Assembly: GCF_017348835.2 (NCBI RefSeq)
Contig: NZ_CP071375.1
Length of the DNA stretch: 64,000 nt
Reading direction: 5' to 3' (one strand)
DNA from: Escherichia coli
GTDB lineage: Bacteria > Pseudomonadota > Gammaproteobacteria > Enterobacterales > Enterobacteriaceae
In this document: in pieces, positions 45,862 to 49,920 of the stretch
Layout: each line of letters starts with the position of its first letter
Position numbering within the stretch: position 1 is the first letter of the stretch
Notes under the pieces: model-generated
Told to the model about the DNA's origin: nothing
The model's database searches: none
Seen by the model: the letters and a program-made list of their open reading frames with translations, nothing else
Program-made: the position numbers and the translations under genes

Positions 45862-46563
45862 GTGGCAGTGAACAGTTTTAACGAAGGGGTGGTTTCACCC
45901 CTTTTGTCTTTCTGGCGTCGATCATTGATGCTGGCCGGCGCTCTGTTTCTCACTGCCTGTAGTCACAACTCTTCACTTCCTCCCTTTACCGCCAGTGGAT
46001 TTGCTGAAGACCAGGGCGCAGTACGTATCTGGCGAAAAGACAGCGGCGATAATGTGCATCTGCTTGCCGTGTTTAGCCCGTGGCGCAGTGGCGATACCAC
46101 GACGCGAGAGTATCGCTGGCAGGGCGATAACCTCACGCTCATCAATATCAATGTTTACAGCAAACCGCCGGTGAACATTCGCGCGCGTTTTGACGATCGC
46201 GGCGATCTGAGCTTTATGCAACGTGAATCCGATGGGGAAAAGCAGCAGCTTTCTAACGATCAAATCGATTTATACCGTTATCGTGCTGATCAGATCCGCC
46301 AGATTAGCGATGCCTTACGTCAGGGGAGAGTCGTGCTGCGCCAGGGGCGCTGGCATGCGATGGAACAGACCGTGACCACCTGCGAAGGGCAAACCATTAA
46401 ACCTGATTTAGATTCGCAGGCGATAGCGCATATCGAGCGCCGCCAGAGCCGCTCTTCTGTTGATGTCAGCGTGGCATGGCTGGAAGCGCCCGAAGGTTCG
46501 CAATTACTGTTGGTGGCAAACTCTGATTTCTGTCGCTGGCAACCCAACGAGAAAACGTTCTGA
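45862..46563 (+). CDS. yjaH: DUF1481-family putative lipoprotein YjaH (233 aa)
   Basis: Lipobox-like N-terminus (LTAC) and conserved position between hupA and zraP. Confidence 0.8.
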   Translation: MAVNSFNEGVVSPLLSFWRRSLMLAGALFLTACSHNSSLPPFTASGFAEDQGAVRIWRKDSGDNVHLLAVFSPWRSGDTTTREYRWQGDNLTLININVYSKPPVNIRARFDDRGDLSFMQRESDGEKQQLSNDQIDLYRYRADQIRQISDALRQGRVVLRQGRWHAMEQTVTTCEGQTIKPDLDSQAIAHIERRQSRSSVDVSVAWLEAPEGSQLLLVANSDFCRWQPNEKTF

Positions 46564-46564
46564 T

Positions 46565-46984
46565 TTACCAGTGGCCCATACCCATATGACCGCCACCACC
46601 GCAGCCGCCGTAACCCATTCCGGTACCGCGCGGAATACCCGCTTCAGCCATCGCAATATCTCGTTTCACCCGTAACTCATCTAACGACTGACGCAAATTC
46701 TCCATCTCTTTGGCGACCGCGTTAATTTTGCTGCTATCCGGTGGGTTCGCGGCTAACAGGGCATTGTATTCATAACGCTTCGTCACCAGTTGCTGTTGCA
46801 GTGCGCTGCTTTGAGCGTAAAAGTCATTATGGATTTTCTGCCACGCTGTCTGTTGTTCGCTGGTCAAAGGCGCGGCATTTTGCTGCCACATACCGTGTCC
46901 GCCGTGAGCAAATGCAGATGTCGATCCCATCGCCATTGCTGAAAGCGCCATCATTACCAGGGCAATTTTCGTGTTCCGTTTCAT
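46565..46984 (-). CDS. zraP: periplasmic zinc-responsive chaperone ZraP (139 aa)
   Basis: Signal peptide MKRNTKIALVMMALSAMAMGSTSAFA, Gly/His-rich C-terminus; the 47-codon ORF-track extension covers the promoter and is rejected. Confidence 0.88.
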   Translation of the reverse strand: MKRNTKIALVMMALSAMAMGSTSAFAHGGHGMWQQNAAPLTSEQQTAWQKIHNDFYAQSSALQQQLVTKRYEYNALLAANPPDSSKINAVAKEMENLRQSLDELRVKRDIAMAEAGIPRGTGMGYGGCGGGGHMGMGHW

Positions 46985-47019
46985 GGTTAATCCTCCAGTG
47001 GTTGTCTTACTTCGGGTAT

Positions 47020-47035
47020 TGCATTTTCCGTGCCA
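47020..47035 (-). promoter_or_regulatory. sigma54 (-24/-12) promoter of zraP
   Basis: Minus strand reads TGGCACGGAAAATGCA, matching TGGCAC-N5-TTGCA. Confidence 0.8.
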
Positions 47036-47074
47036 ACGGTGAAACGCTGATATGACGGGCAATCTGGCGTGATA

Positions 47075-47123
47075 GGCGAGTAAAAATGACTCGCCTGCTG
47101 CGGGTGGCGAGTCATTTTTACTC
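47075..47123. promoter_or_regulatory. ZraR enhancer: paired dyad-symmetric sites between the divergent sigma54 promoters
   Basis: GGCGAGTAAAAATGACTCGCC (47075-47095) and GGCGAGTCATTTTTACTC (47106-47123) are inverted copies of one another. Confidence 0.7.
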
Positions 47124-47174
47124 ATTGAAACTTAAGTCTTTGTGTTACAGCGCAGGGTAAGCGCTGATAAAAGA

Positions 47175-47190
47175 TGGCATGATTTCTGCT
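47175..47190 (+). promoter_or_regulatory. sigma54 promoter of zraSR
   Basis: TGGCAT-GATTT-CTGCT about 30 nt upstream of the zraS start. Confidence 0.65.
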
Positions 47191-47221
47191 GTCAGAAAGG
47201 GATGAGCAGGCAAAGAAGAAG

Positions 47222-48598
47222 ATGCGTTTTATGCAATGTTCTAAAGACTCCTTCGCTAAATGGTTAAGCGCGATCCTCCCCGTAGTCATTGTTGGGCTGG
47301 TGGGGTTGTTTGCGGTAACGGTGATTCGCGATTATGGGCGCGAGACTGCCGCCGCCAGACAAACGCTGCTGGAAAAAGGCAGTGTACTTATTCGCGCTCT
47401 TGAATCCGGCTCGCGCGTCGGCATGGGGATGCGCATGCATCATGCGCAGCAGCAGGCCTTACTGGAAGAAATGGCCGGGCAGCCTGGAGTACGTTGGTTT
47501 GCGGTCACGGATGAACAAGGAACAATCGTGATGCATAGCAACTCCGGCATGGTGGGAAAACAGCTTTATTCCCCGCAGGAAATGCAGCAGTTACATCCGG
47601 GAGATGAAGAAGTGTGGCGGCGGATCGATAGCGCAGACGGCGAGCCTGTTCTGGAAATTTATCGCCAGTTTCAACCGATGTTTGCTGCTGGAATGCACCG
47701 GATGCGCCATATGCAGCAGTATGCCGCGACACCACAAGCAATTTTCATCGCTTTCGACGCCAGTAATATTGTGAGTGCCGAAGATCGTGAGCAGAGAAAC
47801 ACCCTGATTATCCTCTTCGCCCTGGCGACGGTCTTGCTGGCAAGCGTATTGTCATTCTTCTGGTATCGCCGTTATCTGCGCTCGCGCCAGCTTCTACAAG
47901 ATGAAATGAAGCGCAAAGAGAAGCTGGTGGCGCTGGGGCATCTTGCGGCAGGCGTTGCCCACGAAATCCGTAACCCACTTTCCTCGATTAAAGGACTGGC
48001 GAAATACTTTGCCGAGCGCGCGCCTGCAGGGGGAGAAGCGCATCAACTGGCGCAGGTGATGGCGAAAGAGGCCGACCGTTTAAACCGCGTGGTAAGCGAG
48101 TTGCTGGAACTGGTTAAGCCAACGCATCTGGCATTGCAGGCGGTGGATCTCAACACGCTGATTAACCACTCATTACAGCTGGTAAGCCAGGATGCAAACA
48201 GCCGGGAGATCCAGTTACGCTTTACCGCCAACGACACATTACCGGAAATTCAGGCCGATCCGGACAGGCTGACTCAGGTCCTGTTGAATCTCTATCTCAA
48301 TGCTATTCAGGCGATTGGTCAGCATGGCGTGATTAGCGTGACGGCCTGCGAAAGCGGCGCGGGCGTGAAAATCAGCGTTACCGACAGCGGTAAGGGAATT
48401 GCGGCAGATCAGCTTGAAGCCATCTTCACTCCGTACTTCACCACCAAAGCCGAAGGCACCGGATTGGGGCTGGCGGTCGTGCATAATATTGTTGAACAAC
48501 ACGGTGGTACAATTCAGGTCGCAAGCCAGAAGGGAAAAGGCTCAACGTTCACCCTCTGGCTTCCGGTCAATATTACGCGTAAGGACCCACAAGGATGA
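47222..48598 (+). CDS. zraS: sensor histidine kinase ZraS (458 aa as called)
   Basis: N-terminal TM and periplasmic region, H-box GHLAAGVAHEIRNPL, ATPase G-boxes. Confidence 0.9.
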   Translation: MRFMQCSKDSFAKWLSAILPVVIVGLVGLFAVTVIRDYGRETAAARQTLLEKGSVLIRALESGSRVGMGMRMHHAQQQALLEEMAGQPGVRWFAVTDEQGTIVMHSNSGMVGKQLYSPQEMQQLHPGDEEVWRRIDSADGEPVLEIYRQFQPMFAAGMHRMRHMQQYAATPQAIFIAFDASNIVSAEDREQRNTLIILFALATVLLASVLSFFWYRRYLRSRQLLQDEMKRKEKLVALGHLAAGVAHEIRNPLSSIKGLAKYFAERAPAGGEAHQLAQVMAKEADRLNRVVSELLELVKPTHLALQAVDLNTLINHSLQLVSQDANSREIQLRFTANDTLPEIQADPDRLTQVLLNLYLNAIQAIGQHGVISVTACESGAGVKISVTDSGKGIAADQLEAIFTPYFTTKAEGTGLGLAVVHNIVEQHGGTIQVASQKGKGSTFTLWLPVNITRKDPQG

Positions 48599-49920
48599 CG
48601 CACGATAATATCGATATTCTGGTGGTGGATGATGACATTAGCCACTGCACTATTTTGCAGGCTTTACTGCGCGGCTGGGGCTATAACGTCGCGCTGGCGA
48701 ACAGCGGGCGACAGGCGCTGGAGCAGGTGCGGGAACAGGTTTTTGATCTTGTGCTTTGCGATGTGCGAATGGCGGAGATGGACGGCATCGCCACGCTGAA
48801 AGAGATCAAAGCGTTAAACCCGGCGATTCCGGTACTGATTATGACCGCGTACTCCAGCGTCGAGACGGCGGTAGAAGCGTTGAAAACCGGGGCGCTGGAT
48901 TATCTCATCAAGCCGCTGGATTTCGATAACCTACAGGCGACGCTGGAAAAGGCGCTCGCGCATACGCACAGTATTGATGCTGAAACACCTGCGGTGACTG
49001 CCAGCCAGTTCGGTATGGTCGGTAAAAGCCCGGCGATGCAACACCTGCTCAGTGAAATCGCCCTCGTCGCGCCATCGGAAGCCACGGTGCTGATCCACGG
49101 CGATTCCGGCACCGGTAAAGAGCTGGTCGCCAGGGCGATTCACGCCAGTAGCGCACGTAGCGAAAAACCGCTGGTAACGCTCAACTGTGCGGCACTCAAC
49201 GAATCCTTGCTGGAATCTGAATTGTTCGGTCACGAAAAAGGGGCGTTTACCGGAGCCGATAAACGCCGGGAAGGGCGCTTTGTTGAGGCGGACGGCGGCA
49301 CGCTGTTTCTCGATGAAATTGGCGATATCTCGCCGATGATGCAGGTGCGTCTGCTGCGTGCGATTCAGGAGCGCGAAGTTCAGCGTGTCGGTAGCAACCA
49401 GACTATCTCGGTTGATGTCCGGCTGATTGCGGCGACCCATCGCGATCTTGCCGCAGAGGTGAATGCCGGGCGTTTTCGCCAGGATCTCTACTATCGCCTG
49501 AATGTGGTGGCGATTGAAGTACCATCGCTGCGGCAACGGCGGGAAGATATCCCTCTGCTGGCTGGCCATTTTCTGCAGCGCTTTGCCGAGCGTAATCGCA
49601 AGGCGGTAAAAGGCTTTACGCCACAGGCGATGGATTTGCTGATCCACTACGACTGGCCGGGAAATATTCGTGAACTGGAAAATGCGGTGGAACGGGCGGT
49701 GGTGCTGCTGACCGGGGAATATATTTCCGAACGCGAGCTGCCGCTGGCGATTGCCGGTACGCCGATCCCGCTGGGGCAAAGTCAGGATATTCAGCCGCTG
49801 GTGGAAGTCGAAAAAGAAGTGATTCTGGCGGCACTGGAGAAAACGGGCGGCAACAAAACCGAAGCCGCCCGTCAGTTAGGGATCACGCGCAAAACGCTAT
49901 TGGCAAAACTGTCGCGTTAG
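48595..49920 (+). CDS. zraR: sigma54-dependent response regulator ZraR (441 aa)
   Basis: Receiver domain, AAA+ Walker [15 protein letters not shown] sigma54-contact motif, C-terminal HTH. Confidence 0.93.

Follow-up and report, generated by a model that had tools for sequence, protein, structure and literature searches.

How do the oppositely oriented genes zraP and zraSR draw their control from the gap that separates them, and does any part of this gap code for protein, as a mechanical list of open reading frames would have it? The question was addressed in a stretch of Escherichia coli DNA of 64,000 nucleotides (hereafter the window), to which all positions refer. The segment 46985-47221 is almost certainly the divergent control region of zraP and zraSR, in which two sigma-54 promoters share mirror-image ZraR sites. 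The arrangement is that of the zraP-zraSR control region as already known and does not constitute a variant, and nothing observed contradicts this reading. What was observed directly, in the window and its relatives, is the presence of the elements, how far they exceed chance and how well they are conserved, and the domain composition of ZraR.

The zraP-zraSR locus

The 736 bases around the control region matched the PE164 chromosome of E. coli at 100% identity, and nearly all of 5,420 complete genomes of this species at 96-98%. According to the annotation of the identical PE164 sequence, positions 46985-47221 match exactly the whole 237-bp gap between zraP and zraS. The gene order in PE164 is hemE-nfi-yjaG-hupA-yjaH, zraP (on the opposite strand), zraS-zraR and purD, and it is the same in K-12. 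The orthologous K-12 region zraP-hydHG (zraSR) has the same 237 bp, with the same zraS promoter motif, the same 17-bp cores of both ZraR sites and the same spacings. The two regions are 98% identical, the eight single-base differences including none at core positions: one is a spacer base of the zraP promoter (A here, G in K-12), three lie in the outer flanks of the ZraR sites (GG/G here, AA/A in K-12), and the remaining ones are in variable DNA.

For comparison across species, one genome per species was scanned with ZraP as the query, which gave 21 loci from Escherichia, Citrobacter and Salmonella enterica subsp. arizonae. The zraP-zraS spacers of these loci were aligned together with those of the window and K-12, making 23 sequences. 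The zraR gene neighboured the control region in all genomes examined.

The zraP gene (46565-46984, minus strand; RefSeq annotation of PE164) encodes a protein of 139 aa with a signal peptide (MKRNTKIALVMMALSAMAMGSTSAFA) and the Pfam domain Metal_resist (PF13801, E=1e-23). A Shine-Dalgarno sequence, GGAGG, precedes the ATG (46984) by 7 nt, at 46992-46996 on the minus strand, and a GGAG-type sequence at the equivalent place in 23 of the 23 sequences supports this start. The protein is 98% identical to K-12 ZraP with an indel of 2 aa, K-12 ZraP being 141 aa long. The Gly/Met-rich C-terminal tail (46565-46630) reads RGT--GMGYGG in comparison to RGAGMGMGYGG in K-12, that is, a two-residue indel and one substitution.

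On the plus strand, zraS (47222-48598; RefSeq annotation of PE164) encodes the sensor kinase with the Pfam domains HisKA and HATPase_c, and zraR (48595-49920) the cognate enhancer-binding protein with Response_reg, Sigma54_activat and a Fis-type HTH_8. The E-values of the three ZraR matches were 8e-74 (Sigma54_activat), 4e-32 and 6e-15. The GAFTGA motif can be read directly in the ZraR translation, and an activator with both sigma-54 interaction and DNA-binding domains is thus encoded within the system itself. In the alignment of starts, the zraS ATG conserved across genera is at 47231, which is codon 4 of the annotated MRFMQ... protein, and several Citrobacter and Salmonella sequences have no ATG at the position of 47222. 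Judged from this alignment, translation of zraS may begin three codons downstream of the annotated start.

The periplasmic sensor part of ZraS (47330-47790, codons about 38-190) was found to be dimorphic within E. coli. The window and K-12 alleles share 59% protein identity over residues 38-190, with a length difference of 7 residues, and 99% over residues 195-458. Sensor DNA of the window type (identity at least 95%) was present in 4183 of 5419 E. coli genomes; the other 1236, K-12 derivatives included, matched it by only 60-80%. The K-12-like type was found also in E. whittamii and E. albertii, and the window-like type in E69, a cryptic clade and SCPM-O-B-8794, the distance between the two types being about the same as that of each to Citrobacter. 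On this evidence the sensor allele of laboratory K-12 is the minority allele. A literature search did not find a paper on the ZraS sensor dimorphism.

Sigma-54 promoters in the spacer

The initial annotation had placed a near-consensus sigma-54 promoter toward zraP and a weaker one toward zraS in the spacer. Direct reading and a pattern search located both motifs. The zraP promoter (PzraP; TTGGCACGGAAAATGCA, 47020-47036, minus strand, GG at 47034-33 and GC at 47022-21) has a core, TGGCACGGAAAATGCA at 47020-47035, with one mismatch to TGGCACG-N4-TTGCW. The zraS promoter (PzraS; ATGGCATGATTTCTGCT, 47174-47190, plus strand, GG at 47176-77 and GC at 47188-89) has a core, TGGCATGATTTCTGCT at 47175-47190, with two mismatches. 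The spacing of the GG and GC doublets (ten bases) is correct in both, and the motif centres are 154 bp apart. When the 19-bp rule of PMC4591121 was applied, the predicted transcription starts were at about 47009 for PzraP, 25 nt before the zraP ATG, and at about 47201 for PzraS, 21 nt before the annotated zraS ATG.

The loose consensus search alone was uninformative, with 15 matches of at most two mismatches against 14.3 expected, and this background level made a weight matrix and a pairing test necessary. The weight-matrix scoring, which had been proposed beforehand as a check, was performed with a matrix of 17 positions built from 40 intergenic sigma-54 ChIP-seq motifs (Table 1 of Bonocora et al. 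2015, PMC4591121), with the zraP and zraS entries excluded from the training set. Over both strands of the 64-kb window, PzraS had the highest score (17.98 bits) and PzraP the second highest (16.70 bits), both falling inside the range of the training scores (median 16.4, range 8.8-22.2). In random first-order Markov sequences (n=1000), sites of at least 16.69 bits were present at 0.29 per 64 kb, and a divergent pair within 400 bp at this threshold was found in none of the 1000. Both motifs were also strongly conserved in the 23 sequences: the mean majority-base frequency was 0.95 for the PzraP 17-mer and 0.97 for the PzraS 17-mer, with 13 and 14 of the 17 columns invariant, respectively.

The orthologues of both sites are bound in published experiments. 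Sigma-54 ChIP-seq of K-12 has peak OS38 on TTGGCACGGAAGATGCA upstream of zraP with a FAT of 39, and peak OS39 on the PzraS sequence upstream of zraS with a FAT of 9; the starts predicted there for K-12 also lie 25 nt (zraP) and 21 nt (zraS) from the genes (PMC4591121). In Salmonella LT2 both orthologous sigma-54 sites are bound, with occupancies of 4.8 (zraS) and 29 (zraP) (Samuels et al.), and gSELEX with the RpoN holoenzyme gave a peak in the zraP-zraS spacer. When zraR is knocked out in K-12, the log2 change in the presence of zinc is -12.7 for zraP and -3.2 for zraS (about 9-fold for the latter), and without zinc (LB) -0.02 for zraS. In Salmonella with a promiscuous activator, zraP is up 16-fold and hydHG 3.7-fold. 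Sigma-54 and ZraR occupancy and ZraR-dependent expression are carried over to the window by analogy from these K-12 and Salmonella strains, on near-identical sequence, and would be expected here too. The arrangement agrees with the known regulation, as had been claimed, both in the K-12 occupancy by sigma-54 and ZraR and in the fall of expression under zinc in the zraR knockout.

The description of the zraS promoter as the weaker one held by occupancy in both species and by ZraR-dependent output. By sequence score it did not hold, or at best gave a mixed picture: PzraS outscored PzraP both in our own matrix and in the Salmonella PSSM of Samuels et al. (20.1 vs 17.4), and was below it in the Bonocora PSSM (11.4 vs 12.3; PMC4591121).

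These differences bear on a competing explanation, according to which PzraP alone is productive, the zraS motif is a non-productive sigma-54 site, and zraSR is transcribed from an unrecognised sigma-70 promoter. The occupancy of PzraS, about four to six times below that of the zraP site, would fit with this, and many sigma-54 binding sites may indeed never fire (Bonocora et al., PMC4591121). Also, the expression of zraS in LB is independent of ZraR, and therefore another, basal promoter of zraSR must exist. We nevertheless regard a non-productive PzraS as very unlikely, because the motif is the best matrix match of the whole window, is invariant at 14 of 17 positions across three genera and has its predicted start at a short distance from the gene, and because both the zinc-dependent loss of zraS expression in the zraR knockout and the induction of hydHG by the promiscuous activator speak for a working promoter. 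Furthermore, a simple scan of 46400-47400 did not find a sigma-70-like promoter. The reading with two productive sigma-54 promoters is thus preferred.

ZraR sites and the reading frames that cross them

Between the promoters lie two 17-bp near-palindromes, site 1 (CGAGTAAAAATGACTCG, 47077-47093, centre 47085) and its mirror image, site 2 (CGAGTCATTTTTACTCA, 47108-47124, centre 47116), separated by a variable spacer of 14 bp (47094-47107) with one of its 14 columns invariant. With flanks, site 1 reads GGCGAGT-AAAAATG-ACTCGCC (47075-47095) and site 2 GGCGAGT-CATTTTT-ACTCATT (47106-47126). The two inverted copies of GGCGAGT-N7-ACTCGCC given in the initial annotation are thus present and are mirror images, but the right arm of the second is imperfect and matches only ACTC(A). 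As reverse complements of each other, the sites form an 18-nt inverted repeat of 100% identity (47078-47095 and 47106-47123, with 10 nt between the arms), for which the chance expectation in 237 bp is about 4e-7 by our own arithmetic. Together the two sites make up a 48-bp unit that is two-fold symmetric around a point at about 47100/47101. Their centres are 31 bp apart, about three helical turns, which places them on one helical face. The centre of site 1 is at about -76 from the predicted PzraP start and -116 from that of PzraS, the centre of site 2 at about -85 from the PzraS start and -107 from the PzraP start, and both sites are therefore inside the range of 70-150 bp expected upstream of the sigma-54 promoters that they serve.

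As a formula for the site, GGCGAGT-N7-ACTCGCC did not stand. The outer GG/CC of the arms is strain-specific, K-12 having AACGAGT and AGCGAGT, and the central 7 bp are asymmetric and not a free spacer: in the 23 sequences site 1 always had GTAAAAATGAC, and site 2 had GTCATTTTTAC with very little variation. The recognition unit kept across the sequences is the 17-bp YGRGT-AAAAATG-ACYCR. Arm position 3 is A or G and its partner T or C, and many Citrobacter copies of site 2 have changed both (GGGT...ACCC). Strict covariation of the arms was rejected, as about five sequences were asymmetric, in favour of a tolerance for R and Y.

A full-text literature search found no usable description of the ZraR inverted repeats, and a 2016 review gives the ZraR enhancer sequence as 'NK'. 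Leonhartsberger et al. 2001 reportedly described, for zraP-zraSR, 'two inverted repeats separated by a 14 bp spacer', and the geometry found here, 17 + 14 + 17 bp, fits with that description.

The mean majority-base frequency was 0.98 in site 1 and 0.89 in site 2, with 14 and 11 of the 17 columns invariant, respectively. The four elements together had frequencies of 0.89-0.98, in comparison to 0.54-0.69 in the intervening DNA (0.56 between PzraP and site 1, 0.62 in the 14 bp between the sites and 0.54 just after site 2). Also the distances are largely fixed: the sites are 31 bp apart from centre to centre in 22 of the 23 sequences and 32 bp in one, and site 2 is 64-66 bp from PzraS in all 23. 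The distance from PzraP to site 1 (47037-47076) is 56-57 bp in Escherichia vs 67-68 bp in Citrobacter and Salmonella, an indel of 10-11 bp, or about one helical turn, in DNA that is otherwise unconserved. As evidence of phasing this indel would be weak, because it represents a single event.

An additional conserved block, TTTGTG...CAGG, was found at 47140-47156 between site 2 and PzraS, with 5 of 17 columns invariant and a majority-base frequency of 0.80 in comparison to 0.54 and 0.69 in its flanks. The block is seen in Escherichia and Citrobacter, and nothing comparable is present on the zraP side. It is possibly a site of bending or of an accessory factor; inspection of the block by eye gave no convincing consensus of IHF (WATCAANNNNTTR), CRP or CpxR. 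Two further repeats were set aside. The direct repeat AAACGCTGATA / AAGCGCTGATA (47042-52 and 47159-69), which flanks the enhancer with one copy adjoining each sigma-54 motif, is found in Escherichia only and is probably due to chance, and the inverted repeat 46977-88 / 47035-46, restricted to Escherichia or lying on coding sequence, was also treated as chance.

The expectation that the two dyads are the ZraR enhancer sites was borne out by their conservation in the 23 sequences and by published binding data. In gSELEX with ZraR, the zraP-zraS spacer was the single high-affinity target (81 of 86 clones; PMC8249747). The strongest ZraR ChIP-exo peak of the K-12 genome, peak_9 (S/N 73), is at 4201786-4201818 (PMC7657598 Dataset S2, ZraR sheet). 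In a gap-free alignment window positions equal K-12 positions minus 4,154,704, and the peak then falls at 47082-47114, reaching from one site centre to the other.

That the dyads would instead be operators of another protein, or an RNA or DNA hairpin element, is a highly improbable alternative. The GT-N7-AC pattern is also the recognition core of NorR, and by sequence alone related Fis-type HTH proteins could recognise the same site; however, the genome's strongest ZraR peak lies exactly on the dyads, ZraR picks this spacer almost exclusively in gSELEX, and the cognate zraR is adjacent in every genome examined. As for a hairpin, the 48-bp palindrome weakly matches a plant miRNA model (25 bits vs a gathering score of 44, E=0.05). 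When 46300-47500 was compared with Rfam at a permissive threshold, this match and one to a snoRNA within zraP were the only ones; both were below threshold and are ascribed to chance, and no family scored above threshold. Moreover, the dyads are upstream of both predicted starts and would thus be transcribed from neither promoter, and a scan of 46400-47400 found no intrinsic terminator or other terminator-like structure. Binding of ZraR to the two dyads remains the preferred reading.

The second-strongest ZraR ChIP-exo peak of K-12, peak_8 (S/N 34; 4201673-4201698), corresponds to 46969-46994 in the window. It covers the ribosome-binding site and start codon of zraP, at about +15 to +40 relative to the predicted transcription start of this gene. 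No dyad of the ZraR type is present under this peak, nor is there a matching ChIP-exo peak on the zraS side. The peak might, as a speculation, reflect ZraR cross-linked to the polymerase complex via the DNA loop.

The mechanical list of reading frames gives zraP as an ORF of 186 aa (46565-47125, minus strand), adding in frame 47 codons (46985-47125) that begin in site 2 and cross site 1 and PzraP. This extension is a non-coding artefact of the ORF list, as the initial annotation had concluded from its overlap with the promoter and enhancer, and as the comparison of related sequences also indicates. Although E. coli, E. whittamii and a cryptic-clade Escherichia keep the long frame open with an ATG at 47125, the idea that the real zraP is this 186-codon ORF with a 47-residue N-terminal extension has practically no credibility. 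In E. albertii, S. arizonae and all 15 Citrobacter, a stop codon interrupts the frame 1-6 codons before the conserved ATG. The Shine-Dalgarno sequence precedes the ATG at 46984, and MKRN followed by the signal peptide begins at that same conserved ATG in 23 of the 23 sequences. The extension has no Pfam match, overlaps PzraP and the two ZraR sites, would bury the signal peptide and has its first codon upstream of the predicted 5' end of the zraP mRNA, and both RefSeq and the K-12 annotation use the short start. A 42-aa 'hypothetical protein' (WP_001298656.1), annotated in some RefSeq E. coli such as CH10508, corresponds to another ORF of this segment, 46987-47115 on the minus strand. Also this ORF is very likely spurious, because it overlaps PzraP and ZraR site 1 and extends into site 2.

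Divergent activation and related systems

The standard model of NtrC-family response regulators fits the data best, and the formation of a ring, the looping and the precise starts are drawn from general knowledge of this family. In this model, sigma-54 RNA polymerase would wait in closed complexes on PzraP (minus strand) and PzraS (plus strand), while ZraR dimers would bind the two 17-bp sites on the same face of the helix. Upon zinc, lead or envelope stress, ZraS would phosphorylate ZraR, and the site-bound dimers would form an AAA+ ring. By looping of the DNA, the ring could reach either PzraP (sites at about -76/-107) or PzraS (about -85/-116), and ATP hydrolysis by the ring would open the promoter complex. 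The expected outcome is a strong induction of zraP and a more modest one of zraSR, the latter being autoregulation.

At glnAp2, NtrC likewise acts from a pair of 17-bp dyads that precede a sigma-54 promoter, through oligomerisation and looping. The two systems share the two 17-bp dyads about three helical turns apart, a response regulator with a Fis-type HTH, and sites about 80-140 bp upstream. They differ in the half-site, which is of the TGCACC type at glnAp2 and CGAGT here, in the invariant and asymmetric central 7 bp of the ZraR sites, and in the single enhancer that here serves two divergent sigma-54 promoters. In the norR-norVW spacer, to our knowledge, only norVW is sigma-54 dependent, unlike here, where both the zraP and zraS promoters are. 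The NorR sites resemble the ZraR sites in their GT-N7-AC core (GAGT-N7-ACTC here) and in their location in the spacer between divergent regulator and target genes, but there are three of them together with an IHF site (PMC2831303), as against two ZraR sites with no evident IHF consensus. Back-to-back sigma-54 motifs are present also in the hycA-hypA intergenic region of E. coli, with centres 128 bp apart (OS27/OS28, PMC4591121) in comparison to 154 bp here; the activator there is FhlA, with the site CATTTCGTACGAAATG, and is not a two-component response regulator.

It is conceivable, but on balance rather unlikely, that the architecture of the region is fixed and directional, with a single ZraR ring divided between PzraP and PzraS. 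The features that suggest this are the invariant asymmetric AAAAATG, the mirror-image arrangement of the sites, the one-turn difference on the zraP side and the conserved block at 47140-47156 on the zraS side. If this were true, the ratio of zraP to zraSR output would be set by phasing, together with accessory bending or an accessory factor on the zraS side.

The zraP-zraS control region, which has been used as a part in zinc biosensors, is a textbook case in which a single enhancer serves two divergent sigma-54 promoters, and the value of the present analysis lies mainly in annotation hygiene. The ZraR site is better written as YGRGT-AAAAATG-ACYCR than as the strain-specific GGCGAGT-N7-ACTCGCC.
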